This document shows positions 1-12,445 of a stretch of DNA of 12,503 nucleotides, one piece after another (positions within the stretch are counted from its first letter, which is position 1; each line of letters opens with the position of its first letter). Below the pieces are notes generated by a model. It had not been told where the DNA came from and searched no databases. It worked only from the letters and a program-made list of their open reading frames with translations. The position numbers and the translations under genes are program-made. The stretch lies in NCBI GenBank assembly GCA_963836185.1, contig CAWIIQ010000005.1, positions 1 through 12,503 of the forward strand, read 5' to 3'. The DNA is from Candidatus Krumholzibacteriia bacterium. Lineage in GTDB: Bacteria > Krumholzibacteriota > Krumholzibacteriia > Krumholzibacteriales > Krumholzibacteriaceae.

Positions 1-3000
1 CAATATCTTCAAGGATAGCATCAGCTCTTCCCTCGGGTCACGGCCCTCCTCGAAAGCGAATGCGTAGCCTGCCGAGAATGTCGTCTGCAGCGACGAGAAG
101 AAGACGATCTTAAGGTTAAGCTGTGTGCCGGCGTTGACTACCTCGACCCCTTCGTAGTCCGGATCGACATTCGTCGCGATGGCCGAACCGAAGAAGGTAA
201 GGCTGGCCCAGTTGCCATACAGCGACGGCCATCCGAGAGAGGAGAATCTCAGTGGTGGCAATGTCCATTCTACCATCCCCTTGAGGAAGTTAGTGCCGCC
301 GATCTCGTTGAGATCGACTCCGGGAAAGGCGTAAAACTCCCTGTACCTGTTGACGCTCCTGTGGTCGACCCAGTTGTTCCCGAATCCCCCGAAGAAGAAG
401 TACGAGTTTGATTCCTCCCTGTCGCCGAATGAGAAGCCTCCGGATGTCCTGAGCCATATCGAGGAATGGTCCCACGGGAGGAGGAATCCATAGTCCAGCG
501 TTCCCCAGAAGAGGGGGTAGGGGGATCCATTGACAAGTGAGTTATATCCGTTCAGTGAGAACTTGATTCCTTTCTCGGCCTGGATACCACCGATCGTTCC
601 TCTTGTATGGCTGTAGTGGAGGGACCCCTCGAGAGTGTAGAAATCCTTTATAGTCGCCTGCACGTTCTGGTAGTGGGGGAGATACTCGAGGTTTCCATAG
701 GCCGCGGCGCGGATATTCAGCCCGAGTTTCCTCGGTCTGTCTACCACGAATCCGTAGTCGTAATCGAGGGCGAGCGAATGCCCTTTCCTGCTGACCTTGG
801 TCGGGCCGAAGAGGTCGTAGAAGTCGGCGCGGTTGTAATAACCGGTCGCCGCCCACCTGCCCCTTGCATACTTGAACCTGAAGTGGGCCCGTTCGTTCTC
901 CGGCAGGTTAGTGTTGGGAGTGTAGGAAGCGGCCATATCGAGCGCGTTTATCCCCACCGGGTCCATCATGTTGAAACGCAGGCCGATCGTACCGTATTTC
1001 TTGTATCCCTCGACGATCGGGTACAGCGAGGTTACTCTGAGGTTCTTTGTCGGGCTGTACTCACCCTCGTATGTCACCAGTGAGTCGATCTCGATCTCCC
1101 TCGGCGACGAGAGTTTCCAGTCGTCGACGACGGGGTGTTCCAGGATAACAGCCTGGCCGAGATATCTCACTGCCGCTACATCTTCTATCGGCTTTACAGG
1201 TATCATGACCGGTTCGAAGCCTTCGCCCGTATAGATGAAGGTGATCAGCGAATCGTCCGAGACGGGGAGGGGGCGGAAACCGCCGATCTCAAAGTTGCTC
1301 ATCGCCTCGAGCTCCCACTGTTCTAGGTCGAACCTGAATATATTCGATGTGCCTGTAACGTATGAGCTCCCATAGAGGTAGCGTCCATCGGCCGAGTGTA
1401 CGAAATTGGCCGCGTTATTGTCTTTAAACTCATGGATCAGTTCCCACGTGCCGTCACCGAACATCAGCCTTTCCGTCTCCATCCTGATAAGCTTCTGATC
1501 GCCGCTTATGTCGGTCAGGGTGCCGGTCAGATACCTGCCGTCCGGAGAGATATCGATATCGAACATATCGAGCCCGTACCTGAGCTTGAGGAGCTCGTAA
1601 CCGTCAGTGTAGGGGGGAGTGAACATCACGATGCTGCTGAACCCGTTGTCGTGTCTCATGCCCCAGATCGTCGAGTCGGCCCGGCAGTAGACGAGGTCGC
1701 CGGTACGGTTGTTCTTGCAGAGGACTTTCGTTTTCCCGGTGGCAATATCGACAGAGTTCAGATCTCGCCAGCCCCTGCTGTTGTCTGTCGTGAAGAAGAG
1801 GGTCCCGCTGTCAGGATCATGGGCGAGTCCGGTCACGTAATAGAGAGCGGGGGTCTCGATCTCACAGATCTTTCTCATCTTTCCCGTGTCGATATCTATC
1901 GCCGCTATATGAGAGAACTCGCCGGGATAGTTCACCGCTGTGTAGAGCGTGCGGGTCCCGGGATCGAAGAACTCCCTCGAGACCGAACCGAGCGGGCGCT
2001 CGCACAGCTTCCTGGCGGGGGTCACTGGATACTGCCGTATCGAGTCGAGGTTGGTCGCCTGCCACTTCTTCTCGAACTCGATCCATTCGTCCCATTTTTC
2101 GTAGATCGACGCCCCGTATACGTTCCTGAACTGTTTCGAGAAGTAGGCCCCGCTTCCCTCGTTGCGGCGCACCCATTCGATAACCGAATCGGGGCCGTAC
2201 ATCAGCGAGAGGTAGCTGAAGAAACGCGTGCCGTAGAGGTAAGAGACCTGGCCGATCTGGAAATCCTTCGCCGTGCCTTCCGACTCGAGACCTACGACGG
2301 TATGGAACTGCATGCTGTCACGCACCATAGCCCTGAAAGTCATCTCGTCGTATCCGGTCAGCGACCGGCCGATCCCGCCCGCCATCCATGTCTCCATGAA
2401 GACGGCGATACCCTCGTGGTACCACCGCGGCGAGTAGAGCCGAGGCGTAGTAAGGTAGGCGTAGAAGATCGAGACGGGATCTTCCGCGACAGGGTGGACC
2501 TTGCCGAAGAAGAGCTTCCTGAATCTCGAATCCCATCCCGTAGCCTGGTCGGAGGCGGTCACATGGACGAGCTCGTGATTCATTACCCAGTTCATCCGTT
2601 CGTTAGTCGGGCATGTATCGTATACGTACTCGAACGGCTCGATACCGAGGGTTATCCAGTTGTTGGGGATCACCGTGGTTCCGGCATACCCGTAATCATC
2701 GTCATCGTTAAAATAGACCGTGACCTCACCGCTGGGCTTGTAGTCGAAGAACTTCTGGTGATAACGGAAAGCGTTCTCGAAACAGCGGGACATGTGTTCT
2801 ATCACATATTCCTGCTCCCTGAAGAAATAGAAGACCCTGAGGTCTTCTGTCTGATACGTCCTGTATTTAAGCTGGTACGGCTTTTCCTGAACGTAGTCGT
2901 CCTGGCCCGACGCCCGCTGTGGAACGAGAAAAATCGCCGCGGCGGCGATAAGAATGGAGATCGGGCGAAGAATCAGTCCGGCGGTCGATGTGAAACCTCT

Positions 3001-3003
3001 CAT
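1..3003 (-). CDS. Large exported protein: zinc metallopeptidase (gluzincin/peptidase MA-like) + TolB/PD40-like beta-propeller + C-terminal outer-membrane beta-barrel (Omp85-like); stop codon lies outside the window
   Basis: Manual translation from ATG at 3003 (RBS-like AAAGGAAAAAG) gives MRGFTSTAGLILRPISILIAAAAIFLVPQRASGQDD (signal peptide). It contains NHELVH (HELVH at 2563-2577), PRWYHEGIA as third-ligand motif (~2404-2430), the propeller motifs DISPDGRYL and HSADGRYL, and amphipathic strands with YFFFGGFGNNWVD, ending ...EELMLSLKIL at base 1. The ORF track lists no minus ORF in this frame, and the long plus ORFs 607-1083, 1135-1326 and 1396-3135 are its in-register antisense shadows. Confidence 0.9.
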   Translation of the reverse strand, partial: MRGFTSTAGLILRPISILIAAAAIFLVPQRASGQDDYVQEKPYQLKYRTYQTEDLRVFYFFREQEYVIEHMSRCFENAFRYHQKFFDYKPSGEVTVYFNDDDDYGYAGTTVIPNNWITLGIEPFEYVYDTCPTNERMNWVMNHELVHVTASDQATGWDSRFRKLFFGKVHPVAEDPVSIFYAYLTTPRLYSPRWYHEGIAVFMETWMAGGIGRSLTGYDEMTFRAMVRDSMQFHTVVGLESEGTAKDFQIGQVSYLYGTRFFSYLSLMYGPDSVIEWVRRNEGSGAYFSKQFRNVYGASIYEKWDEWIEFEKKWQATNLDSIRQYPVTPARKLCERPLGSVSREFFDPGTRTLYTAVNYPGEFSHIAAIDIDTGKMRKICEIETPALYYVTGLAHDPDSGTLFFTTDNSRGWRDLNSVDIATGKTKVLCKNNRTGDLVYCRADSTIWGMRHDNGFSSIVMFTPPYTDGYELLKLRYGLDMFDIDISPDGRYLTGTLTDISGDQKLIRMETERLMFGDGTWELIHEFKDNNAANFVHSADGRYLYGSSYVTGTSNIFRFDLEQWELEAMSNFEIGGFRPLPVSDDSLITFIYTGEGFEPVMIPVKPIEDVAAVRYLGQAVILEHPVVDDWKLSSPREIEIDSLVTYEGEYSPTKNLRVTSLYPIVEGYKKYGTIGLRFNMMDPVGINALDMAASYTPNTNLPENERAHFRFKYARGRWAATGYYNRADFYDLFGPTKVSRKGHSLALDYDYGFVVDRPRKLGLNIRAAAYGNLEYLPHYQNVQATIKDFYTLEGSLHYSHTRGTIGGIQAEKGIKFSLNGYNSLVNGSPYPLFWGTLDYGFLLPWDHSSIWLRTSGGFSFGDREESNSYFFFGGFGNNWVDHRSVNRYREFYAFPGVDLNEIGGTNFLKGMVEWTLPPLRFSSLGWPSLYGNWASLTFFGSAIATNVDPDYEGVEVVNAGTQLNLKIVFFSSLQTTFSAGYAFAFEEGRDPREELMLSLKIL

Positions 3004-3028
3004 CTTTTTCCTTTGAATGAAACGCGAC

Positions 3029-3069
3029 AGGAAGGAGGCAGCCCGGTCGGTGCCGGGCTGCTCCTTCCT
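3029..3069 (-). terminator. Strong intergenic stem-loop (mRNA-stabilising hairpin or leaky terminator)
   Basis: AGGAAGGAG(G)CAGCCCGG-tcggtg-CCGGGCTGCTCCTTCCT forms a 17-bp stem with one bulge, between the repeat gene stop (3116) and the next start (3003). There is no clean U-tract directly after the stem on the minus strand. Confidence 0.6.
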
Positions 3070-3115
3070 ACCACTCATCCCCTCTTCCGCTTCATGTCAA
3101 AAGTGCGAGGGACCC

Positions 3116-5079
3116 CTAAATATCCCTGCTTATAGACGACCTTTCCATGACGGAGGCCCTGTTGAATACCGCGGCTCTTTCCTGGACCGAGAAGCGTCCC
3201 ATGATCGAGGCCTTCTCCGTGATGGAGGCCCTGTTGAATACCGCCGCTTTCTCCATGACCGATGCGCGCCCCATTATGCTGACCTTCTCCTGCACCGAGA
3301 ACCTGTTCATCAGGGAGGCTTTCTCCTGGATCGAGAACTTTTCCTGCATGACGGCGGCCTTCTCCTGTACCGAGAGCTTGTCGAAAGCTTCCATGGTGAT
3401 CTCGGCTCTTTTCATGATAGAAGTACGTTCCGCGACTTCCAGGCGGTTCATCAGTTCCATGCGTTCCATGGCTGTAGATCGGTTGAATATCGCTGCTTTC
3501 TCCTGCACGCAGCAGCGCTCGAACATATCGGACTGCTCCTGGGCGGTGGCCCGGGCGAACACGTTCGATTTCTCCATGACCGAAGCCCGCTGGAAGATGA
3601 ACGCTCTGCCTTGTATGCTGGCCCTCTCCATTATGGAAGCTTTCTGCGCTATCGAGGCACGCTCCATGATCGAACTTCTCATCTGGACCGATGTACGCTC
3701 CATGATGCTGGATTTTTCCTGTACCGAGAACTTCTCCATCATTGCGGCCTTCTCCTGTATCGAGAACTTGCCCATGATCGAGGATTTTTCCTGCATCGGG
3801 AGCTTGTCGAAGGCTTCCATCGTGATCGATGATTTCTTCATTAGCGAGGTCCGATCCTGAACGGAAAGCCTGTTCATGAGCTCCATACGTTCCTGGACCG
3901 TGGCATGATCGAATATCGAGGCTTTCTCCGTGACCGAGGCGCGCTGCATGATGTCGGCACGCTCCATGACCGAGGCCCTCTCGAAGGTGAAGGAGGTCCG
4001 GCCCATGATGCTGGTCCTCTGCATGATCGCTGCCTTCTCCATGACGGAGGCGCGCTGCATCATCTCAGCCCGTTCCATGACCGAGGCCCTCTTCATGATA
4101 CTGGACTTCGCCTGGATCGAGAACCTGTCCATCATGAATGCTTTTTCCTGGATCGAGAACTTGTTCATGACAGAAGCTTTCTCCTGCATCGGGAGCTTAT
4201 TGAAGGCTTCCATCGTGATCGAATGTTTTTCGAGCAGCATGGCGCCGGCCGGGGTGAGAGCTTCGTGTAGACCTTCATCTTTTCCTGGATGTTGGCGCGA
4301 TCGAAGATAGCGGCCTTTCCCTGGAAAGATGATCTCTCGAGTATCGAAGCGTGCTCGGGCGCCGAGGCACGGTTGAAAATAGCCGCCTTCTGCTGGACCG
4401 AGGTGCGCTGCATGATATCGATACGCTCCTGGACCGAGGTACGATTGAAGACAGCCGCCTTCTGCTGTATCGAGGCGCGCATCATGATATCGGCTCTCTT
4501 CTGGATGGAGAGCCTCTCCATGATAGCTGCTTTCTCCTGGATCGTAGCGGTCTGCATCAGGGAAGCTTTTTCCTGTACAGAGAACTTCTCCATCATGAGA
4601 GCTGATTTTTCCTGCATGGGCAGCTTGTTGAAAGCTTCCATGGTGAACGAGATCCTCTTCATGATGCTGGTTCTATCCTGGATCGAGAACCGCTGGAACA
4701 TGGAGACACGTTCCATCGGAGTCGCACGCTCGACGAGAGAGACGCGCTCCTGCATTGGGACGAGGTCGGCGAACGCCGCTTTCTCCTGGATCGAGACCCT
4801 CTGCATGAGATTGGCCTTCTCCTGCATATCGGTGCGCTCGAACAGAGCTGCCATTTCCTCAGGGGAGATGATATTGTCGATAGTGTATTCCGACTCGTAA
4901 TCCCCCTCGAAATTCAGTACAACGTCCTCGTCGCTCATCTGCTGGTCACGGTGCTTATCCACCACTCCTATCGTCCCCTCGGCGCCTTCACGGCCTGTGG
5001 GAGGATGGAAGAAGGCGAAGTAGGCGACCACTGCGATCGCGATCAGGACAACCACCAGTAGAACCTTGTTCTTGGTCAT
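3116..5079 (-). CDS. N-terminally anchored or secreted Met-rich hexapeptide-repeat protein (~654 aa when the two ORFs 4165-5079 and 3116-4240 are joined across a 1-nt frameshift at ~4241-4257)
   Basis: Strong RBS AAGGAGG before ATG 5079. N-terminus MTKNKVLLVVVLIAIAVVAYFAFF is a signal or TM helix. Both ORF halves carry the same [RK]-x-[SA]-[IV]-[MQF]-[EQN] repeats and the same ITMEAFxKLPMQEK-type block, and adding one base restores the repeat register. Confidence 0.85.
3119..4860 (-). repeat. Degenerate coding tandem repeat: 18-nt/6-aa unit (often paired as 12 aa), roughly 90 units, with a higher-order ~131-143-codon super-repeat
   Basis: Example run: RASVME RAEMMQ RASVME KAAIMQ ... KLPMQE KSSIMG KFSIQE KAAMME KFSVQE. 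Recurring DNA words on the plus strand include ttctcctg, ccatgaccgaggc and gatcgagaac. Confidence 0.95.
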
Positions 5080-5136
5080 CTGGTGCCCTCCTTCTGGTAA
5101 ATGGGTTTCTGCCGCTTGCTGATTTACTGTTCACCC

Positions 5137-5166
5137 TAAATACAGGCGGGTCTTGCCGAAAGTTGG
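5137..5166 (-). promoter_or_regulatory. Putative ECF-sigma promoter for the repeat-protein gene
   Basis: Minus strand reads CCAACTTT-13 nt-CTGTATTTA: an AAC-type -35 and a TGTA -10 separated by 17 nt. The same two boxes occur upstream of the sigma gene. Confidence 0.7.
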
Positions 5167-5182
5167 TCGGATCCGCCTGTTT

Positions 5183-5920
5183 TTATTCTCCGGCGGAATA
5201 TTTCGTCGCCGCCACAGTCTTGCCATCGGTGAAGATCCGCAGCACGAAAGACGTGGATCCCGCCGATCTGAGTCTGACGATATATTCCGCGATGCCGTTA
5301 TGTACGAGCAGGAGGCTCTTTTCATCGACCTCCATCTGGTAGGCAGCTCCCTCGCTCGACCTGATCGACTCGAAGGATGTTCCATCCTCGAACTCGAGGA
5401 GGATGCTGGCATCCGCCTCTGAAGCCAGGTCTAATGTGATAGTCGCAGAACCGCTCTCGAATACGGGGGTTATGCTGCCCTTCACCCCGAAAGCGTCGAA
5501 TCTTCCTGTGGTCTCATCTTCTCCGGAAGCCGCTCCGATAGTCGCTCCGTATCCAGGTTCATCCGGTGCCCGGTCCGGCAGCTGCCGTATCGCGGCGAAG
5601 AGTATGAATCCTGCCGCTACGCCGGCAGCGAAGACCGGCACGAACGACCGCCAGAAAACGTTTCTTTCGGGGGGGCGGGCCACTGCCTCTTCCAGGGAGC
5701 GTTCGTATACCGAACTGAAGATCCGTTCCCTGAGTTCGGAGGGTGGCTCGACATCTCTCGTGCCGTCGATAGCCTCGACCGTCGCCCGAAGCTCCTTGTA
5801 GTATCTCCCGGCCTCCGGATCGGAGCTGACATATGAAGCGAGTCTCTCAGCGTCCTCATCGGAGATGACACCGTCGATCTCCTCGTTCATCATCCTTATG
5901 TATCTTTCATCTATGGTCAT
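5183..5920 (-). CDS. Membrane-bound anti-sigma factor (RsiW/RseA-type topology)
   Basis: Starts 3 nt after the ECF sigma stop. The N-terminal anti-sigma-like helices (MMNEEIDGVISDEDAERLASYVSSDPEA) lack the HxxxCxxC zinc ligands. A single TM segment (FVPVFAAGVAAGFILFAAI) is followed by a beta-rich extracytoplasmic C-terminal domain. Confidence 0.8.
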   Translation of the reverse strand: MTIDERYIRMMNEEIDGVISDEDAERLASYVSSDPEAGRYYKELRATVEAIDGTRDVEPPSELRERIFSSVYERSLEEAVARPPERNVFWRSFVPVFAAGVAAGFILFAAIRQLPDRAPDEPGYGATIGAASGEDETTGRFDAFGVKGSITPVFESGSATITLDLASEADASILLEFEDGTSFESIRSSEGAAYQMEVDEKSLLLVHNGIAEYIVRLRSAGSTSFVLRIFTDGKTVAATKYSAGE

Positions 5921-5923
5921 GAC

Positions 5924-6454
5924 CTACACCGCCCCTGTAAGTAATTCCTTCATCCGCTGCCTGGCTGAGTAAAGCCTGGACTTCACAGTCTTCTCATGGA
6001 TCCCCAGCACTTCGGCTATCTGGCTGTACGAGAGATCGACGAAGTGCCTGAGGATGATGACCACCCTCTGGTCCTCGCTGAGTCTCTTGAGCGCCGTCTG
6101 CACGAGCCCGTTCGACTCCTCACGGATCAGCTGCTGCTCCGGTCCCGGAGTGCGGGAGGGAGGGTCGAATTCGACGTGCACTATCCTGCTCTGTCTTTTG
6201 ACCTGATTGAGGGATTCGTTGACGCCCATCCTGTAGAGCCAGCTGAAGAACTTCCTCGAAGGATCGAAGGTCTCCAGCCTGTCGAAGGCCTTTACAAATA
6301 CTGTCTGTGTTACGTCCATGGCTTCCTCGTAGTCGCCGCAGATCCTTAACGCGAGGTTGAAGATCCGCCGCTCGTACTTCTCCACCAGCCTTCCGAACGC
6401 TTCCCTGTCTCCATTCAGCGTCTCGTTGACCAGCGATGAATCCGTTGTCGACAT
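5924..6454 (-). CDS. ECF-family (sigma-70 group 4) RNA polymerase sigma factor
   Basis: Region 2 GDREAFGRLVEKY...EAMDVTQTVFVKAF...KFFSWLYRMGVNESLN; region 4 LSEDQRVVIILRHFVDLSYSQIAEVLGIHEKTVKSRLYSARQRMKELL. Start placed at MSTTDSSLV (6454) rather than the 6517 start in the ORF track, which fits the usual ECF N-terminus. Confidence 0.95.
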   Translation of the reverse strand: MSTTDSSLVNETLNGDREAFGRLVEKYERRIFNLALRICGDYEEAMDVTQTVFVKAFDRLETFDPSRKFFSWLYRMGVNESLNQVKRQSRIVHVEFDPPSRTPGPEQQLIREESNGLVQTALKRLSEDQRVVIILRHFVDLSYSQIAEVLGIHEKTVKSRLYSARQRMKELLTGAV

Positions 6455-6482
6455 AAATACAGACCAACCATGAAAAAGTTGG
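6454..6482 (-). promoter_or_regulatory. Putative autoregulatory ECF promoter of the sigma gene
   Basis: Minus strand reads CCAACTTT-12 nt-CTGTATTTA(TG), with 16 nt from AAC to TGTA. The boxes are identical to those at 5137-5166. Confidence 0.7.
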
Positions 6483-6643
6483 CGGCCGGTATGGAAAACG
6501 TCCTCCGTCCGGCGCACTTCGATGGCCGGTGACGGAGGACGATACCGGAATACCGGACCGTGCCACAGCCGTCACGCTCGTGCTGCAGGTGTTGTTGTAA
6601 ATCCCTTGTGTTAGAGAGCTTGTGAATCAGAGTAAAATAACTT

Positions 6644-6931
6644 TTACTTTATGTCAAATATAAAGTCGAATCCGGCGATGGTGAAGATATCGCGGATGTG
6701 AGAAGTCATGTTGATGATCTCAAGCTTGTGACCTTTGTCGATGAGGCGTTTCTGGGTGCCGAGAAGGAGGCCGAGGCCGGCGCTGGAGATATATCGCAGC
6801 TCCGCGAAATCTACCTTTACCGTCGTTTCGACCTTTTCGAGGACGGTCCTGGTCGTATCGACCTGGTTCGAGTCGAGCCTTCCGGCGAGTCTTATCGTTC
6901 CATCTCCCGCTACCGATATGTCGAACGTCAT
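6644..6931 (-). CDS. STAS-domain anti-anti-sigma factor (SpoIIAA/RsbV-like)
   Basis: 95 aa; LAGRLD and DFAELRYISSAGLGLLL with the conserved phospho-acceptor serine. Its start overlaps the upstream stop (ATGA). Confidence 0.92.
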   Translation of the reverse strand: MTFDISVAGDGTIRLAGRLDSNQVDTTRTVLEKVETTVKVDFAELRYISSAGLGLLLGTQKRLIDKGHKLEIINMTSHIRDIFTIAGFDFIFDIK

Positions 6932-7332
6932 CTTTCCTCCAGGCGCTTCTTTACCGTGATGACCAGGGTGCCGTCATCGTAGTCGTATTCCAGGCTGTCC
7001 GCCATCTTTTTTACGAGATGGATGCCGAGCCCGCCCGGCTCGCGTTCCATCAGCGGAGCTTCAGTGTCGACTTCGCCGAGCGAGTTTCCATCGAACGGTC
7101 CGGTCTCGCGGTCGGTAAGGCGGATCGTTATAAGGCCGTCATCGAGTTCTATCTCGACATCGATATTCTCGCTTCCGTTGGCGTGACGCACGAGGTTTGT
7201 GAAGAGCTCTTCGAGCGTCAGGTCGAGGAAGTAAGATTCGGGATCCTCGAGGCCGTTGCAGGTCTCGAACTCTTCCGCGAACGCGAATAGCGCATCGAGC
7301 GATCCTATATCTCTTCTGAACGTTCTCCGCAT
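6928..7332 (-). CDS. Anti-sigma factor serine kinase (RsbW/SpoIIAB-like HATPase)
   Basis: N-box LTLEELFTNLVRHA, TDRETGPFD and G2 box REPGGLGIHLVKKMAD. The start is uncertain (7332 or 7353). The 7455 extension in the ORF track crosses the AT-rich divergent regulatory region. Confidence 0.9.
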   Translation of the reverse strand: MRRTFRRDIGSLDALFAFAEEFETCNGLEDPESYFLDLTLEELFTNLVRHANGSENIDVEIELDDGLITIRLTDRETGPFDGNSLGEVDTEAPLMEREPGGLGIHLVKKMADSLEYDYDDGTLVITVKKRLEER

Positions 7333-7384
7333 GGCTGAAGATGTTAACTGCATTCGTGATCTGATGCAAGCGGACTTCGCTCTT

Positions 7385-7447
7385 ACCTCGTAATACGGTA
7401 ATAAATTATCGTAAAACAATAAAAATTGCTTGAAAAACGGCAACATT
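7385..7447. promoter_or_regulatory. Three tandem operator-like sites at 21-bp spacing in the divergent intergenic region
   Basis: acctcg-taata-cggtaa (7385), ttatcg-taaaa-caataa (7406, near-palindromic) and tgcttg-aaaaa-cggcaa (7427). The third site overlaps a possible TTGAAA -35 box at 7430. Confidence 0.55.
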
Positions 7448-7498
7448 ATGTTCATTCTACCCGTATACGGAACAGGATTCTAAATGAAAGGAGCCGTC

Positions 7499-8131
7499 AT
7501 GACGGTACAGGGATTCAAGCCCTCCGCGGCGACGAAGGTATCGGTGGTAGTAGTCGAGATCCTCTTCTGGCTCGCCGTTCTCGCGATGCTTCTCTCGGTC
7601 GTTCTCGTGATCGCTGTGAACTTCACTCCATTCCATGTGAAGTATACGCGTGCCCCGGTTGAAGTATGCTACATCGCCGGTGGAGGAGGCTGGCTGCAGG
7701 GACAGGACCTTTCGATCACCAGCTCGAAGATCACCGGGTACAGCCGGCTCGTCATGGAGAACGGCGAGAAGGGGTTGCAGAGGATCTTCGTCATAATGCC
7801 GCTGCTCCTCTCGATGCTTTTTCTCGGGATAGTGATGATCCTCAGGAAGATCATCAAGTCTATAAAGAGCGGTACACCCTTTACACGGGTGAACGCCGCG
7901 AGGATAAGGGCGATGGGCTGGCTCGTGATGGCGGCCGGTCCTTTCTGGGGCATTCTCGAGTACATCTACGCGTGGATGTGGCTGCCGAAGATAGGGATCG
8001 AAGGGGCGAAGATCTATATCGAGCCCGACTTCCGTGTATTCTATATATTCGCCGGTCTTGTTATCGTAGTAATCGGGCACGTATTCCAGTACGGCGTGAG
8101 CCTGTGTGAAGACAGCGAACTGACCGTCTGA
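7499..8131 (+). CDS. DUF2975-family multi-pass membrane protein
   Basis: Four hydrophobic segments, the motif LRKIIKSIKSGTPFTRVNAARIRAMGW and the C-terminus IGHVFQYGVSLCEDSELTV, all typical of DUF2975 proteins. It is followed by the usual HTH partner. ATG 7499 has RBS AAAGGAG; 7484 is an alternative start. Confidence 0.88.
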   Translation: MTVQGFKPSAATKVSVVVVEILFWLAVLAMLLSVVLVIAVNFTPFHVKYTRAPVEVCYIAGGGGWLQGQDLSITSSKITGYSRLVMENGEKGLQRIFVIMPLLLSMLFLGIVMILRKIIKSIKSGTPFTRVNAARIRAMGWLVMAAGPFWGILEYIYAWMWLPKIGIEGAKIYIEPDFRVFYIFAGLVIVVIGHVFQYGVSLCEDSELTV

Positions 8132-8142
8132 GGGAGGGTGTC

Positions 8143-8355
8143 ATGGCAATCAACGTTAATCTCGACATGATGCTCGTCAGACGGAAGATGTCCCTTACGG
8201 AACTCTCGTCCGAGGTGGGAGTGACGATCGCGAATCTCTCCGTCCTCAAGACAGGACGGGCCAGGGCCGTCCGGTTCTCGACACTCGAAGCTGTCTGCAG
8301 GGCTCTCGACTGTCAGCCGGGGGATATACTTGAATATATCCCCGATAACGGTTAG
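8143..8355 (+). CDS. Cro/C1-type (XRE, YozG-like) helix-turn-helix transcriptional regulator
   Basis: MAINVNLDMMLVRRKMSLTELSSEVGVTIANLSVLKTGRARAVRFSTLEAVCRALDCQPGDILEY; RBS GGGAGG. Confidence 0.95.
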   Translation: MAINVNLDMMLVRRKMSLTELSSEVGVTIANLSVLKTGRARAVRFSTLEAVCRALDCQPGDILEYIPDNG

Positions 8356-8395: not shown

Positions 8396-9130
8396 ATGAG
8401 ATACCTGACGATCCTCGTTCTCGCCGCCTGTATCCTGATGCCCACGACCGCGTGGAGCGGCAAGTACACTCTCGAGCACCAGGCTATTGCAACAGTCGAG
8501 CTGCCCAAGCCTCTCTTGAGCAGTGATTTCTCGATAGAAAAGGTCCTCCATGAGCGCAGGTCGGTAAGGAAATATACCGATGAGCCCGTTACGCTGGAGG
8601 AAGTCTCACAACTTCTCTGGTCCGCCTACGGGATCACCTACACGAAGGAAGGACTTCCCGATTTCATACGCGGCGGGTTCAAGACCGCACCCTCAGCCGG
8701 CGCGCGTTACCCGCTCGAGTTATATCTGGTAGTGGGAAACGTAAAAGGGCTCCTGCCGGGGATATACTGGTACGTACCTGAGGGTCATCTGATCCACAGG
8801 CTCGCCGATGGCGATATCCGAAGCGACCTGATGGCGGCTTGCCTTAGCCAGCCGTTCGCCGGTGAAGCTCCTGTATCGATCGTCTGGTCCGCCGTCTACG
8901 AGAGATGCACGGAGAAGTACGGGGAGCGCGGGCATGACAGATACGTCTGTATGGACCTCGGTCACTCGGCGCAGAACGTCTATCTGCAGTGCGGCTCCCT
9001 CGGGCTCGGCACCTGCGCGATCGGCGCCTTCTCCGACGATGCCCTCAAGAAGGTGATCGGGATGACAGAAGAGGAAGTGCCTCTCTACGTGATGCCTGTC
9101 GGCAGGCTCCCCAGGGAGCACAAGAAGTAA
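8396..9130 (+). CDS. SagB/ThcOx-family FMN-dependent dehydrogenase (nitroreductase fold) with predicted N-terminal signal peptide
   Basis: FMN-binding motifs ERRSVRKY, TAPSAGARYPLELY, DLGHSAQNVYL and LGLGTCAIGAF; RBS AAAGGAG; N-terminus MRYLTILVLAACILMPTTAWS. Confidence 0.9.
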   Translation: MRYLTILVLAACILMPTTAWSGKYTLEHQAIATVELPKPLLSSDFSIEKVLHERRSVRKYTDEPVTLEEVSQLLWSAYGITYTKEGLPDFIRGGFKTAPSAGARYPLELYLVVGNVKGLLPGIYWYVPEGHLIHRLADGDIRSDLMAACLSQPFAGEAPVSIVWSAVYERCTEKYGERGHDRYVCMDLGHSAQNVYLQCGSLGLGTCAIGAFSDDALKKVIGMTEEEVPLYVMPVGRLPREHKK

Positions 9131-10299
9131 TGATAATACTCGACAGGCCGTATGTATCCGATTTTCTCGCCGAAACACTTCAGCGCCTCCGGACGCCGGT
9201 GCTGCGAAACGCAGTCTCTGAAAAGGTTGCCGAGGAATACGACCTCGCTCTCCTCGACGGGGAGGAGTTTGCCGCGAGGGCCAACGCCGAGAAGTATCCC
9301 CGGATCTATACCAGCTCGGAGGACGCGATCGGTTGGATCGCCGAAAACCTCAGGCCGTCCGGACTTCCCTACAGGATCGATCGGCTGAAGAACAAAATCG
9401 ATTTCCGCGCGATGATCGAGGAGGACCATCCGGAGTTCTTCTACGCCGGTATAGATGTCGATGCGCTCAGGCATCTTGACCCCTCAGAGCTCCCCAAGCC
9501 GTTCGTCGTAAAACCGGCGGTCGGATTCTTCAGCGTGGCGGTCCGGAAGATAGAATCTGACGAGGACTGGCCCGCCGCCCTCAAGTCGATCGAGGATGAT
9601 CTGGAGAGTTTTAGCGGGATGTACCCCGGACAGGTATTCGATCCGGGGCAGTTTATCATCGAGGAAGGGATAAAGGGTGAGGAGTTCGCAGTAGACGTCT
9701 ATTACGATGAAACAGGCAGGCCGGTGATTCTCAACGTCCTTCATCATCTCTTCTCATCGGGGACGGATGTCAGCGATACGACATATATCACCTCGAAAAA
9801 TATAGTTGAGTACGGCATCCGGATGTTCACAGGGCCCCTTGCGAGGATCGGGAAGCAGGCCGACCTTAAGAACTTTCCCCTTCATATCGAGCTGAGAGTG
9901 GACGGCTGCGACATCGTTCCGATAGAGGCCAATCCGATGAGGTTCGCCGGATTCGGCGGAACCGATTTCGGCTGGTACGCATGGGGCATCAACACGCATG
10001 AGTATTTTCTCGAGAGAAAGATGCCCGACTGGAATTCGATCTTCGCCGGGAAAGAAGACAGGGTCTATTCGATGTATGTTGCCTTCATCCCCGAGGGTGT
10101 TCCTGTCGAAGATGTAGAGGAAATAGATTACGAAGGCTTCGCGGCCAACTTCGATAAGGTGATCGAGCTCCGGAAGACAGACTGGCGCACTTACCGTGTC
10201 TTTGCATTTGCTTTCACGGAGACTGGCCCCGGAACCGTGGCAGAGATCGAGCGGAACCTGCAACTCGACCTGTCGCAGTATGTACTTCTCAAGGACTGA
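9130..10299 (+). CDS. ATP-grasp domain protein (carboxylate-amine ligase-like), substrate unknown
   Basis: LKNKIDFR, PFVVKPAVGFFSVAV, FIIEEGIKGEEFAVD, HIELRV and PIEANPMRFAG. The start at ATG 9130 is coupled to the upstream stop (TAATG); the 8989 extension in the ORF track overlaps the previous gene. Confidence 0.9.
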   Translation: MIILDRPYVSDFLAETLQRLRTPVLRNAVSEKVAEEYDLALLDGEEFAARANAEKYPRIYTSSEDAIGWIAENLRPSGLPYRIDRLKNKIDFRAMIEEDHPEFFYAGIDVDALRHLDPSELPKPFVVKPAVGFFSVAVRKIESDEDWPAALKSIEDDLESFSGMYPGQVFDPGQFIIEEGIKGEEFAVDVYYDETGRPVILNVLHHLFSSGTDVSDTTYITSKNIVEYGIRMFTGPLARIGKQADLKNFPLHIELRVDGCDIVPIEANPMRFAGFGGTDFGWYAWGINTHEYFLERKMPDWNSIFAGKEDRVYSMYVAFIPEGVPVEDVEEIDYEGFAANFDKVIELRKTDWRTYRVFAFAFTETGPGTVAEIERNLQLDLSQYVLLKD

Positions 10300-10304
10300 G
10301 ACAG

Positions 10305-11129
10305 ATGGCTCTGCGCCGCAAGACGATAATTGCGCTGATCCTCCCGTTACTGCTGCTTGCGGTCCTGTCCGCGCTCGCGCTTCGTATTCCCCGCCTTCGA
10401 ACCGCTCTGAGGATAGTCGATGGATTCGAACCGCTCGAAAGTTACGAACTGGTCTATTATGAGCAGGGATCGGAAGAGTACGCCAGGCGTATAGCAGAGA
10501 CGCTGCCGGGTGCGATCGAGCGTATAGAGTCCCTGCAGGGCCGCCCTTTCCCGTCCCTGCCAAGGATCTACATCTGCGCGACTCATGAAAGATTAGCTGA
10601 ACAAATAGGCGAGTCACCGGAAACGGCCGTTCGCGGCATCGCGTTCAAGCGTGATATCTGGCTCTCACCCCTGATCTTCTCGTTTTTCGGAAAGGATACT
10701 CACGCCCAGTCCCTGCTGCATGAACTGTCCCATACTCATATCAGCCAGCACCTGAGCTGGTTCCATCGCGTCAGGAAGATCCCTGCCTGGTTCAACGAGG
10801 GACTGGCGGATTGGGTCTCAGGTACGGGAGAGGATCGGATCTCGCGGAGTGAAGGGATCGCCGCAATCAGGGCGGGGAGAGCCCTGGCGCCTGATGATAC
10901 GGGGCAGTTTCCCAGGCCGAAGGAGCCGGCGGACTACGGCCTCTCGTGGCCTATGCTTCATGTCCAGTCTTTGATGTTCGTAGAATATCTAGCGGAGCGG
11001 GACAGAGAGGCGTTCGACGGCTTTCTCGGTGATTTGCTGGACGGGGAGGACTTCGGTCCTTCGTTTGTCCGGCAGTTCGGTGCGGGCCCCGGTGTAATCT
11101 GGGAAGAATTCACGGGCACGCTGGAGTAG
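10305..11129 (+). CDS. Membrane-anchored zinc metallopeptidase (peptidase MA-like gluzincin)
   Basis: N-terminal hydrophobic anchor; LLHELSH (HExxH) followed by PAWFNEGLADW; SLMFVEYL helix. Confidence 0.85.
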   Translation: MALRRKTIIALILPLLLLAVLSALALRIPRLRTALRIVDGFEPLESYELVYYEQGSEEYARRIAETLPGAIERIESLQGRPFPSLPRIYICATHERLAEQIGESPETAVRGIAFKRDIWLSPLIFSFFGKDTHAQSLLHELSHTHISQHLSWFHRVRKIPAWFNEGLADWVSGTGEDRISRSEGIAAIRAGRALAPDDTGQFPRPKEPADYGLSWPMLHVQSLMFVEYLAERDREAFDGFLGDLLDGEDFGPSFVRQFGAGPGVIWEEFTGTLE

Positions 11130-11205: not shown

Positions 11206-12445
11206 GTGTTCAGGAAAATAACAATTTTTATCTTCGTTGCTCTATCTCTGGTTATATCAGGATGTGGGGGAGGCGGAGGTGACGGCACGACAGAGATCGT
11301 GATATGGGAACAGAAGGACCCTGTCGAACAGGACGTCCTCAACAGGCAGCTCGATGCCTACATGGCGAGCCATCCCGGTGTCAACGTCTCTACGGTACAC
11401 TTCGAGACCGACCTTCTCCACAGCCAGTTCCAGACTGCCACTCTCGCGGGAGGCGGCCCCGACCTCGTGTACGGGCCGAGCGACAAGATCGGTCCTTACT
11501 CAGTGATGCAGCTGATCATGCCTCTCGAGAAGATATTCGACGCGGCCTTCTTCGGCGCGTATGAGAAGTCGTCGCTCGGCTGTCCTCGAAGGGCACAATT
11601 ACGCGGTGCCCGACCAGATCGGCAACCACCTGATGCTGATATACAACAAGGCGATGGTAAAGTCGGTCCCGAAGGATACCGATGAGTGGATAGAGATCTG
11701 CAAGGACCTCACCGTCGACGAAAATGGAGACGGGATGCCGGAGATATACGGCGTCGTTTTCAACTCTGTCGAGCCTTTCTGGCTCGTTCCCTTCCTCGGC
11801 GGATTCGGTGGATGGGTGATGGATAAAAATTTCGCACCGACTCTCGACACGCCGGAGATGGCAAAGGCGCTCGCCTTCATGGCCGACCTTCGCAACAAGC
11901 ACAAGATTCTCCCGAAGGAATGCAATTACGAGCTGAGCGACACGATGTTCAAGAAGGGCCAGGCGGCATTTATCATAAACGGTCCCTGGTCGCTCAAGGC
12001 TTACATCGAGGCGGGGATGGATATAGGTGTAATGGCGATCCCGATGATAACGGAGACGGGGAATTACCCGGCACCGATGGTATCGAGCAAGGGATACTCG
12101 ATAAGCGTCAATGTCAAGGACGAGAAACTCCCTGCTGTAAAGGAACTCCTCGTCTATCTCACCGGAGAAGCGGTCCAGAGGGAGATCACCTCTGAACTGA
12201 AGATCCTTCCCGCCCTCTCCAGCCTCGCCACCGACGAAGTCCTTCTTTCCGACCCGGTGCTGAAAGGTTCGATGGAGCAGGCGCTGCACGGACAGCCGAT
12301 GCCGGTCGTGCCCGAGATGCGGGCGATCTGGGACGCGATGCGACCCTATTACCAGTCCGTGATGGGAGGGAAGCTCGACCCGACCGAGGCGGCCAGGGAC
12401 ATGCAGGAGCAGGCCGTCAGGAAGATCGCCGAGATGAGGGGATAG
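11206..12445 (+). CDS. Sugar (maltose/maltodextrin-type) ABC transporter substrate-binding lipoprotein, frameshifted at ~11575-11582 (sequence error or pseudogene)
   Basis: GTG start with RBS AAGGAGG; lipobox LVISGC; GGGPDLV in the first ORF; GHNYAVP, LIYNKAMV, FKKGQAAFIINGPWS and PMPVVPEMRAIW in the second ORF. The span of 1240 nt is not a multiple of 3. Confidence 0.85.

Follow-up and report, generated by a model that had tools for sequence, protein, structure and literature searches.

A seven-gene cluster pairing a peptidase-propeller-Omp85 barrel protein with a membrane-anchored passenger, PrsW and an ECF sigma factor

The window, that is, the whole stretch of DNA analysed here, is one entire contig of 12.5 kb and carries on its minus strand four adjacent genes encoding an ECF sigma factor, an anti-sigma factor, a repeat protein (5079-3116) and a large protein (3003-1), co-oriented as an earlier note on this DNA had described (Table 1). 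As also noted there, identical CCAACTTT and CTGTATTTA boxes precede both the sigma and the repeat genes, the strong ribosome-binding site AGAAGGAGGG stands ahead of the repeat gene and a hairpin folds between the repeat and large genes. Three points of that note need correcting: the repeat gene is frameshifted in this assembly, its unit is not a hexapeptide, and the cluster is larger than four genes, with a STAS/RsbW-like kinase pair before the sigma gene and PrsW after the barrel gene. The contig ends one codon short of the stop of the large gene, as judged by another copy of the locus, on contig C1 of the same genome, and the next gene, PrsW, is therefore hidden from the window; a PrsW match is found directly 3' of the large gene's C1 copy (G000:C1:1955260-1955475). 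The STAS and kinase genes (6644-7455) lie beyond the region covered by the earlier note. They occur in 42/52 and 38/52 well-flanked loci respectively, with the STAS phospho-acceptor pattern [IFMV][SD]SxG in 50/59 and the kinase N-box and GG[LIVM]G box in 41/48 and 47/48; the true start of the window kinase is probably near 7332. The cluster thus comprises seven genes, is spread over many little-studied bacterial phyla, and no description of it was found in the literature searched.

Table 1. Features of the locus, in window coordinates.
Feature	Position	Strand	Basis
RsbW-like anti-sigma kinase (HATPase_c_2)	6928..7455	-	Pfam PF13581 E 7.7e-18
STAS anti-anti-sigma protein (RsbV-like)	6644..6931	-	Pfam STAS_2 E 1.8e-12
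ECF-type promoter 1, CCAACTTT-N12-CTGTATTTA, abutting the sigma start codon	6454..6482	-	sequence and genome scan
ECF sigma factor, 176 aa	5924..6454	-	TIGR02937 121 bits (cut-off 42.9); Sigma70_r2 and r4_2
Single-pass anti-sigma factor, 245 aa	5183..5920	-	NF052375 E 1.1e-9, below cut-off
Anti-sigma juxtamembrane motif Y-G-A-T-I-G, residues 124-129	about 5551-5534	-	sequence
ECF-type promoter 2, CCAACTTT-N13-CTGTATTTA, 5' of the repeat gene	5137..5166	-	sequence and genome scan
Ribosome-binding site AGAAGGAGGG of the repeat gene, ahead of ATG 5079	5086..5095	-	sequence
Passenger N-terminus: TM anchor (about residues 6-24), linker, leader GTIGVVDKHRDQQMSDEDVVL (residues 35-55, 4977-4915)	4915..5079	-	alignment of 57 rows
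Passenger body, ~47 degenerate 12-residue repeats, frameshift-split near 4235-4257	3116..4914	-	sequence; Pfam MgtE_N over cut-off in both pieces
Long RNA hairpin, passenger/barrel intergenic	~3015..3080	-	-45 kcal/mol for 80-nt segment
Signal peptide and gluzincin peptidase domain (residues about 45-325)	2029..3003	-	catalytic motif alignment; ESM Atlas
Catalytic residues H143, E144, H147, E197	2577, 2574, 2565, 2415	-	
TolB-like beta-propeller (residues about 326-608)	1180..2028	-	VIA-align TolB 1c5k Z 22.6, rmsd 2.8, 240 aligned; PD40 E 4e-4
16-stranded Omp85-type barrel, altered loop 6 (residues about 650-1001)	1..1056	-	predicted structure

The gluzincin motif HExxH...E previously pointed out in the large protein is invariant in 57/57 aligned orthologues. 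The top ESM Atlas cluster for the peptidase domain is 'Peptidase MA-like' (score 0.95; PF13485 on 35% of members), and the domain's own Pfam match is weak (E 0.035). The AF2 model of the barrel has 16 long strands (pTM 0.82) and can be superposed on D. radiodurans BamA (8xnb; Z 19.1, rmsd 4.1, 283 aligned). Its loop 6 carries an invariant F-P-G, as against [VLM]RGY in three distant peptidase-WD40-Omp85 paralogues, and a POTRA domain is absent from the protein, so that the usual Omp85 translocation hardware is changed, which counts against export through the barrel; a separate BamA is encoded in the genome.

In the assembly the repeat gene appears as two ORFs (5079-4165 and 4240-3116), with one base missing near 4235-4257, whereas in same-genus genomes it is a single ORF of 651-670 aa. 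The frameshift is likely an assembly error, because the C1 copy carries many indels different from those of the window copy; no read piece spanning the site was found among the read pieces listed. The unit of the repeats, S-[LI]-Q-E-K-A-S-I-[FM]-E-R-A and predicted to be helical, has a period of 12 (identity 0.34-0.50 across its six nearest orthologues) rather than 6 (0.26-0.41 in the four orthologues where listed). An LpxD/LbH hexapeptide identity was rejected, the NCBIfam matches being far below cut-off; one orthologue passes the Pfam cut-offs for both LbH_EIF2B (58.2 vs 54 bits) and MgtE_N (94 vs 25.9 bits). An AlphaFold model of an orthologous passenger shows short helices at low confidence (mean pLDDT 61, pTM 0.30), with a helix that gives way to a poorly predicted stretch (residues 25-71). 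Across lineages the bodies are unrelated (~200-820 aa, with periods of 4, 6, 7, 9, 10 or 12, or non-repetitive), as are the C-termini, and only the leader, G[TA]IG..K[YH]R..Q[IM]...D[VI].L, is conserved; a search of 50%-identity representatives matched it to 1643 clusters (E<=0.001).

The earlier note had proposed testing whether homologues of the large protein consistently have a repeat protein and an ECF pair as neighbours. The outcome did not refute its reading: the leader protein adjoins the large protein in 69/73 loci (HMM; loci with >=1.8 kb upstream), and an ECF pair lies near it in 42/52. In all four HMM misses the leader was present on inspection or was encoded one gene further up. 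Among relatives, a leader-motif gene was detected in 21/22 genomes with a strong barrel-protein match, the sole exception being 75% complete, and in 0/39 without; these counts include kin and are therefore non-independent, and the leader HMM was trained on 60 of these loci, some of the genomes in this and the next count overlapping the training rows. Among 301 Acidobacteriota genomes the leader was found in 28/29 barrel carriers, in 25 of them within a few kb on one contig, with three further leader matches being borderline (E 8-9e-4). Two genomes have two barrel genes, each preceded by a leader gene. This consistent adjacency makes a dedicated pair of substrate and machine well supported by genomics. 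What had been missed is PrsW, present in 49/52 well-flanked loci (all but L074, L125 and L127) and in 20/22 relatives, as well as in three relatives with neither barrel nor leader (G012, G046, G051).

The PrsW motifs EExxK, FxxxEN and HxxxN are all kept in 71/71 sequences, which have a conserved additional C-terminal region of ~130 aa. Anti-sigma factor and passenger have in common a juxtamembrane [DE]-hydrophobic-x-G-T-hydrophobic motif: G[TS]-hydrophobic occurs 9-23 residues past the TM in 29/38 separate anti-sigmas (4.0 expected) and in 0/5 other TM-bearing anti-sigmas of this genome. At positions not used for selection, a hydrophobic residue stands at -2 in at least 32/35 anti-sigmas, and D/E at -3 in 15/35 anti-sigmas and 116/145 leaders. 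The distal part of the leader is absent from the anti-sigmas (0/38). In nine loci the anti-sigma domain is fused to the TM-leader-repeat protein, corresponding to four changes on the FastTree phylogeny, at least two of them forced by strongly supported branches, and such fusions make up 16/142 motif-matching representatives; the fused forms lack the periplasmic domain of the anti-sigma. Several fused ORFs retain an internal Met ahead of the TM, at which translation might begin. Where the sigma/anti-sigma pair is displaced, in G061 and G048, PrsW accompanies it, and in five loci from three lineages (L081, L099, L107, L120, L122) for which a cognate sigma was not found genome-wide, PrsW has stayed beside leader and barrel; among ten 'sigma-less' loci the cognate sigma lies elsewhere in the genome for four, and the other six genomes may be incomplete. 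We consider PrsW the better candidate for releasing the anchored protein and for cutting the anti-sigma.

CAACTTT-N11-14-CTGTATTTA occurs at four sites genome-wide, namely both window promoters and their counterparts in the C1 copy; the promoter is confined to the locus copies, and no regulon beyond the cluster's own genes was found in this genome. A looser version precedes 29/52 sigma genes (1.6 expected from shuffles) and 23/68 leader genes (2.7 expected). The hairpin is likely a terminator or stabiliser and, together with the second promoter, would set the passenger in excess over the transporter, as for structural exports; long hairpins lie at the same place in most folded loci, as judged by eye and without a shuffle control.

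The gene set, its cross-phylum conservation, the one-to-one passenger/barrel pairing, the common motif and promoter, the intact catalytic motifs of both proteases and the recurrent fusions led us to an overall reading that we hold tentatively, at a little under an even chance: PrsW would cut both anti-sigma and passenger, activating the sigma factor, and the leader would dock on the barrel protein, with likely export of the passenger as a predicted helical rod. PrsW would probably be the site-1 protease of both, its cut falling at or close to [DE]-hydrophobic-x-G-[TAS]-hydrophobic. The genome encodes an RseP-type M50 protease, which would likely complete anti-sigma cleavage, the sigma then transcribing from both promoters in positive feedback. 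The barrel protein would likely recognise the passenger by the distal leader K[YH]R..Q[IM]...D[VI].L, which passengers alone carry, and the chances are about even that the passenger leaves through the barrel and the gluzincin removes the leader. The STAS/kinase pair may gate PrsW, not the ECF sigma, though this is somewhat less likely than not. If this scheme is true, cutting at one motif frees the passenger for likely export while turning the cluster on.

The main rival, though unlikely, is periplasmic quality control, in which the released repeat protein would be a holdase or adaptor (Spy/CpxP/DUF3106-like) handing misfolded envelope proteins via its leader to a propeller-gated gluzincin, the barrel being a mere outer-membrane anchor. 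The passengers are amphipathic and lack enzyme domains (of 86 scanned, 64 gave no match, 11 matched MgtE_N and six STI1/HOP DP), and barrel loop 6 lacks the RG[FY] motif. STI1 domains and Met-rich helices serve as chaperone surfaces, and Met makes up 8.5-10.7% of the window passenger, but just 1-4% of many orthologues. One orthologue matches DUF3106 (E 4.6e-6), the family encoded at +2 of ECF37 sigma genes (PMC7826278), and in PlpD, a precedent, the enzyme domain attached to an Omp85 barrel remains periplasmic (PMC11116518). However, the bodies are unrelated between lineages, only the leader being conserved. The passenger paralogues found in tandem (L110, L122, L124, G069) and the single passenger per barrel suit cargo better than a housekeeping chaperone.

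Signal peptidase I requires small residues ahead of its cut site, and the leaders have, counted from such a cut, G at -1 and A/V/T at -3, two residues before the invariant G (117/145), so that PrsW may not be the releasing enzyme. Export would then follow the route proposed above, with signal peptidase I cutting behind the invariant Gly to free the passenger and PrsW acting on the anti-sigma only; we regard this as improbable. The site lies 10-15 residues past the TM, which is long for signal peptidase I, the T/A-I-G after it is strongly conserved, and the anti-sigma version of the motif is bulky (M/Y/F) at -3 in 13/35. PrsW is moreover kept beside leader and barrel where a cognate sigma was not found, although in G061 it moves with sigma and anti-sigma, away from them. 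One passenger (L117) has a lipoprotein-like N-terminus, and signal peptidases are the site-1 proteases for RsiV and RsiP (PMC10202637).

Slightly less probable still is a polyprotein precursor, one of the options in the earlier note, whose repeats the gluzincin would chop into short peptides that leave via the barrel as signals or weapons, the ECF pair closing an autoinduction loop. Near-perfect short repeats in L091 (period 9, 0.82) and L119 (period 12, 0.81), one basic residue per unit in most repeat types, the fusion of peptidase to barrel and bodies without a common fold are consistent with it. Yet the repeats of the present lineage, which diverge from one another (0.34-0.38 at period 12), are kept by position between its species (0.76-0.81), as a fold would require, a spacer or cleavage signature common to the families is absent, passengers from Bacteroidales show no repeats (best period identity 0.09-0.13), and the fused forms lack the anti-sigma periplasmic domain, the would-be receptor; the helical rod is accordingly favoured over peptides. 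Least probable is an envelope-spanning sensor without cargo, in which the anchored protein would reach the outer-membrane protein as a strut or bait, lost contact or damage letting PrsW cut the anti-sigma: the fusions do make the repeat protein the anti-sigma itself and signalling parts (STAS, kinase) abound in the cluster, but conservation is confined to the stretch within ~35 residues of the inner membrane and the C-termini are unrelated, so that contact would need release, the passenger length varies fourfold, and the promoter scan points to the cluster's own genes alone.

Two-partner secretion couples a dedicated Omp85 protein to a passenger with an N-terminal signal. As in the type Vb systems TpsA/TpsB (FhaB/FhaC), where a conserved signal and a variable passenger stand beside the transporter (PMC11358297), a dedicated Omp85-superfamily barrel here adjoins a long repetitive passenger; unlike them, this system lacks POTRA and TPS domains, its passenger is predicted to be alpha-helical and inner-membrane anchored, its transporter carries its own metallopeptidase, and the unit includes PrsW and an ECF pair. 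In the WD40-like Omp85 subfamily (Heinz and Lithgow 2014, PMC4104836), called uncharacterised in PMC11116518, the passages on it in both papers naming no partner or function, a TolB-like propeller likewise replaces POTRA before a 16-stranded barrel. This clade differs in loop 6 (FGGFGNN...FPG vs GG...[VLM]RGY), in lacking the terminal aromatic residue and in its fixed passenger, PrsW and ECF neighbourhood; distant paralogues in related genomes (~24% identity) combine Peptidase_MA_2, PD40 and barrel, and at the three such loci examined neither leader gene nor PrsW was found in 13-14 kb. The regulatory part resembles Bacillus subtilis SigW-RsiW-PrsW-RasP, in which PrsW is the site-1 protease of RsiW (PMC10202637, PMC3482391), in its ECF sigma, single-pass anti-sigma, intact PrsW, genomic site-2 protease and autoregulated promoter, but the hosts are diderm, PrsW is cluster-encoded with its additional C-terminal region, and a second protein bears the same juxtamembrane motif and can fuse to the anti-sigma domain. 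PrsW has been proposed to release exported polymorphic toxins (Zhang et al. 2012, PMC3482391); there, as that source describes it, PrsW is toxin-fused and mainly Gram-positive, whereas here it is a separate gene accompanied by an Omp85 barrel, and no toxin domain was found in the 86 passengers. ECF37 shares the order of sigma, anti-sigma and a helical-repeat protein at +2, the weak DUF3106 match in one orthologue being to that family, described as soluble, with RDD at +3 and a predicted TGTCAACC/CGTT promoter (PMC7826278); the portion of that source dealing with ECF37 does not mention PrsW or Omp85, both present in this cluster.

The window corresponds to an entire 12.5-kb contig, C5, of a six-contig, 3.5-Mb assembly. 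The same genome carries a second copy of the locus on contig C1; it differs by many indels, and the two ends that were compared are 87-90% identical in DNA, so that C5 is likely to be a strain haplotig. The whole window seems to duplicate positions ~1943400-1954985 of C1 (genome G000). C1 is rich in frameshifts and overlaps at its end with contig C6; more than one strain appears to be mixed in the assembly, which also seems to retain uncorrected indels. Near 4235-4257 the repeat gene lacks one base: in genomes of the same genus, a single repeat protein of 651-670 aa is encoded, and both pieces found in the window align with it in register. Programmed frameshifting in this gene was ruled out because relatives carry one ORF. 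No bridging read piece was found at the frameshift site among those listed, and no run contained half of the query words in the read search. The identical promoter boxes ahead of the sigma and repeat genes, the strong ribosome-binding site of the latter and the hairpin separating it from the large gene, all described in the earlier note, were found as stated. Within 1-7500, contigs of a sediment metatranscriptome (X5) mapped to the repeat gene and scarcely to any other part; they originate from one study whose RNA library may hold DNA, cannot rank genes, and their absence from other parts of this interval carries no inference. Among the plus-strand genes, the 274-aa HExxH protein is without Pfam match and displays a weak flagellinolysin match (E 6e-4), and the split of the SBP_bac_8 gene is probably another assembly indel.

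Coordinates of the genes identified in the window
Feature	Position	Strand
RsbW-like kinase	7455-6928	minus
STAS protein	6931-6644	minus
ECF sigma	6454-5924	minus
Anti-sigma	5920-5183	minus
Repeat gene	5079-3116	minus
Large gene	3003-1	minus
DUF2975 membrane protein, then Cro/C1-type HTH_26 regulator (common pair)	7484-8355	plus
Nitroreductase-family protein, ATP-grasp_4 protein, 274-aa HExxH protein	8396-11129	plus
Sugar-binding lipoprotein (SBP_bac_8), apparently split across two frames near 11560	11206-12445	plus

The AlphaFold (AF2) model of the large protein, obtained with 35 sequences (mean pLDDT 82, pTM 0.82), comprises a helical domain (residues ~45-325), a propeller (~326-608) and 16 long strands (656-1000). 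Using VIA-align, the propeller could be aligned with TolB (1c5k; Z 22.6, rmsd 2.8, 240 aligned, residues 328-584), and the model matched D. radiodurans BamA (8xnb; Z 19.1, rmsd 4.1, 283 aligned). The predicted organization is that of a WD40-like Omp85 protein, with a C-terminal 16-stranded Omp85-type barrel and a TolB-like propeller replacing the POTRA domains; the Omp85_2 match to the barrel (E 1.4e-4) is slightly below the cut-off. The earlier note had recognized gluzincin marks, and these were borne out: a Glu further along the chain completes the HExxH motif as third zinc ligand, and H143, E144, H147 and E197 are invariant in 57/57 orthologues and also present in three distant paralogues from related genomes. 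In the ESM Atlas, the peptidase domain fell among Peptidase MA-like clusters (score 0.95), 35% of whose members carry PF13485. Foldseek and VIA-align lists for the whole large protein were filled by propellers and contained no gluzincin, an absence that excludes nothing in such propeller-dominated lists. Sequence profiles of the whole protein, the peptidase and the barrel gave no useful PDB relatives.

A (V/I)RG(F/Y) motif in loop 6 marks the BamA, TamA and TpsB translocases. The large protein lacks it and carries instead F893-P894-G895, with P and G in 57/57 orthologues, whereas the three distant paralogues, which match Peptidase_MA_2 and PD40 and possess a terminal Phe, keep [VLM]RGY. This difference argues that the large protein represents a derived clade of peptidase/WD40-type Omp85 proteins, as judged by comparison with these local paralogues. 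Neither a leader gene nor PrsW was found near the three paralogues. At L156 (4860-8024), L157 (4720-7863) and L158 (3947-6970), peptidase-WD40-Omp85 paralogues with intact HExxH and RGY are surrounded by different neighbours. The host genome encodes a separate BamA, which rules out the large protein as the host's BamA. The nearest named relatives of the large protein are records titled Krumholzibacteriota, and a search started from a Bryobacterales orthologue returned no cultured isolate by name among the best 120.

The repeat protein, hereafter the passenger, is composed of a TM helix, a 10-15-residue linker, a leader motif, G[TA][IF]G..K[YH]R..Q[IM]...D[VI].L, and a body. The body has a period of 12 in the window, and the other passengers display periods of 4, 6, 7, 9, 10, 12 or none, with lengths of ~200-820 aa. 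In the lineage of the window, repeats share 34-38% identity with their neighbours as opposed to 76-81% when compared position by position across species of the genus. A Pfam scan of 86 passengers assigned no family to 64, MgtE_N to 11, STI1/HOP DP to 6 and a zinc ribbon to one, and detected an enzyme or toxin domain in none of the 86. The leader profile search yielded 1643 clusters at 50% identity, compared with 22 matches for a less sensitive word-based search, and the ESM Atlas returned no usable match to the passenger N-terminus. Several observations count against a hexapeptide beta-helix built of [LIV]-x-x-x-[ASTV]-x strands: period 12 scores above period 6, NCBIfam hexapeptide matches are far under cut-off, 8% of 468 units have Pro where the beta-helix core residue would be, and the passenger model, albeit of low confidence (pLDDT 61), consists of short helices. 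One orthologue above the LbH_EIF2B cut-off supports the beta-helix. We tentatively favour a helical rather than a left-handed beta-helical repeat fold; Foldseek searches with the model retrieved generic helical solenoids only (TM-score <0.2). A role as methionine-rich oxidant scavenger was ruled out, since Met amounts to 1-4% in many orthologues. In L117 (7754-8908), the passenger N-terminus is lipoprotein-like and without TM anchor, the motif Gly lying ~11 residues past the Cys. Expanded loci were encountered in G069 (L166, 2776-13911), with two barrel genes and four leader genes, and in L122 (6395-8517), with three passenger paralogues in tandem. Away from the cluster, L159 (6319-6882; G060:C15) is a short leader-motif gene with a 187-aa ORF, possibly an extra cargo.

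We examined 97 loci (L031-L127), from which duplicates were then dropped. Five loci that were duplicates or incomplete (L050, L051, L053, L057 and L069) were left out throughout, L039, a near-copy of L037, was left out of the shared-site, neighbourhood and motif counts, five fused proteins out of the anti-sigma counts and six mis-anchored leaders out of the offset list; alignments A2 and A3 omit six loci, five mis-anchored ones and L039. Among 73 loci that have 1.8 kb or more of upstream sequence, an HMM identified in 69 a leader gene ending less than 900 nt from the large gene; the remaining four have a divergent leader gene (L107, L120), a split one (L059) or one that lies a gene farther upstream (L054). 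Because 60 of the examined loci had served to train this HMM, whole genomes were searched as well. Strong large-protein matches were present in 22 of 61 relatives, and the leader was detected in 21 of these 22 and in 0/39 others; among 301 Acidobacteriota genomes 29 carried the barrel gene, and the leader was found in 28/29, plus 3 borderline matches, some of the searched genomes overlapping the HMM training rows and kin not being independent. In the 52 loci flanked by 4.5 kb or more on the upstream side and 1.2 kb or more downstream, we counted the leader 52 times (2 by eye), the gene of the membrane protease PrsW 49 times, sigma and STAS 42 times each and the kinase 38 times. The neighbourhood of large-protein homologues thus agrees with what the earlier note had anticipated, both for the leader-bearing repeat protein and for sigma. 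PrsW also directly follows the C1 copy of the large gene. By record title, the cluster is found in Krumholzibacteriota, Eisenbacteria, Latescibacterota, Acidobacteriota, Bacteroidota, Ignavibacteriota, Balneolota, KSB1 and others. We conclude that it is a real, widely conserved system, the last mechanistic step of which is uncertain.

The promoter pattern CCAACTTT/TGTATTTA occurs at 4 sites of the host genome, two per locus copy, and a looser pattern was found upstream of 29/52 sigma genes (1.6 expected) and 23/68 leader genes (2.7 expected). The locus displays the components of SigW/RsiW/PrsW-type RIP: an ECF sigma with an adjacent single-pass anti-sigma and a promoter that, judged by its motif, would be autoregulated, a PrsW with intact catalytic motifs (EExxK, FxxxEN and HxxxN in 71/71; PF13367 above cut-off) and an M50 (RseP-type) site-2 protease in the genome (E 6.6e-68). 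A G[TS]-hydrophobic motif is located 9-23 residues past the TM in 29/38 separate anti-sigmas (4.0 expected from shuffles), in 35/38 if A is allowed for G, and in 0/5 other TM-bearing anti-sigmas of the host genome. The residues at -2 (hydrophobic) and at -3 (frequently D/E), which were not selected for, agree with those of the leader; the distal leader was found in 0/38 anti-sigmas. Linkage and the shared motif suggest that PrsW may cut the anti-sigma. Nine loci encode the anti-sigma domain in one protein with TM, leader and repeats. Mapped on an unrooted FastTree built from 81 large proteins, these fusions require 4 changes, of which strongly supported branches force at least 2, and 16/142 motif-matching representatives are of the fused form.

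All 10 well-flanked sigma-less loci were traced to their genomes. The cognate pair resides elsewhere in 4 of them, with its own PrsW in G048 and G061 and inside a second cluster copy in G062 and G069, which rules out the general claim that sigma is dispensable. No cognate sigma was found in the other 6/10 genomes, and in five of those six, from three lineages, PrsW stays beside leader and barrel. In G046 and G051 (L160, 6592-7920; L161, 6324-7652), STAS is directly followed by a cluster-type PrsW and neither leader nor barrel was found in the genome, an arrangement that suggests a STAS-PrsW link or a remnant. Cluster PrsW proteins (e.g. G003:C4 near 126870) possess a conserved C-terminal region of ~130 aa after the PrsW domain, without Pfam match in the one orthologue scanned, which is a candidate docking site for the STAS/kinase pair.

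In the simplest reading, PrsW would cut passenger and anti-sigma at their shared site, RseP would finish the anti-sigma stub as in SigW-RsiW-PrsW-RasP, and the freed sigma would transcribe its own gene and the passenger gene, the second promoter and the hairpin giving cargo in excess. Unless released, the distal leader would stay too near the inner membrane for contact with a protein of the outer membrane; this position and the unrelated C-termini make the leader the likely address of the passenger for the barrel protein. From the gene pairing, our best guess is that the passenger may cross the outer membrane through its cognate barrel. Because barrel pairing is one-to-one, cargo varies behind a fixed signal, and promoter and hairpin are suited to cargo excess, we favour a scheme ending in export with leader removal, to which, its last step being a best guess, we grant a little less than an even chance. 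The altered loop 6, the lack of POTRA domains and the precedent of PlpD (PMC11116518) count against export and support a periplasmic chaperone or degradation role in which nothing is exported, a reading that we find rather unlikely. Release of the passenger by signal peptidase instead of PrsW appears improbable, and a peptide polyprotein, also envisaged in the earlier note and given no favour by the repeat analysis, is still harder to defend. A static sensor is the least credible of these roles. The export scheme can be extended: a cytoplasmic STAS/kinase partner switch would gate PrsW, a single cut site common to anti-sigma and cargo would switch on the operon and launch the cargo together, and a peptidase-containing Omp85 transporter would read the 20-residue leader and export interchangeable helical fibres. 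Such a new route across the outer membrane, with its switch built in, is proposed tentatively and is less likely than not.

WD40-type Omp85 proteins were named in 2014 (PMC4104836) and still called uncharacterised in 2024 (PMC11116518). One clade of them now gains a candidate substrate family (1643 clusters), a 20-residue candidate recognition motif and, as targets for mutation, two catalytic sites, all directly testable in E. coli, and a PrsW protease gains a candidate recognition motif and a candidate second, non-regulatory substrate. Should the passenger indeed be exported, the cluster would represent a secretion pathway, distinct from two-partner secretion, that takes on cargoes unrelated to one another, each preceded by a short leader. 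If the extended scheme with STAS/kinase gating of PrsW also holds, a WD40-Omp85 protein would acquire its first function and an ECF sigma would be activated from inside out.

The architecture of the large protein agrees with that described for WD40-like Omp85 proteins by Heinz and Lithgow in the accessible sections of PMC4104836, which give neither partner nor function. PrsW-dependent export has been proposed for PrsW-toxin fusions (PMC3482391), whose arrangement differs from that of the cluster. ECF37/DUF3106 loci (PMC7826278) have a TGTCAACC/CGTT promoter, a soluble DUF3106 protein at +2 and RDD at +3, unlike the cluster with its CCAACTTT/TGTATTTA promoter, a TM in the +2 protein and the barrel protein at +3. 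A literature search found no description of the cluster, although a more recent account of an ECF group may have escaped it, and the system is apparently undescribed so far; what is new is the gene system, from which we infer the mechanism. In two-partner secretion, the transporter has two POTRA domains, and its passenger an N-terminal TPS domain and a beta-helix. Here, residues 45-650 hold peptidase, propeller and a short linker, the large protein shows no Pfam match to POTRA, a TPS domain was found in 0/86 passengers, and the passenger model is helical, with low confidence. Having no POTRA, no TPS domain and no RG[FY] motif, the cluster therefore falls outside two-partner secretion. By analogy, its mode of action would nonetheless come closest to two-partner secretion (PMC11358297) coupled with a proteolytic switch of the SigW type, in the manner of the SigW-RsiW-PrsW-RasP cascade (PMC10202637).
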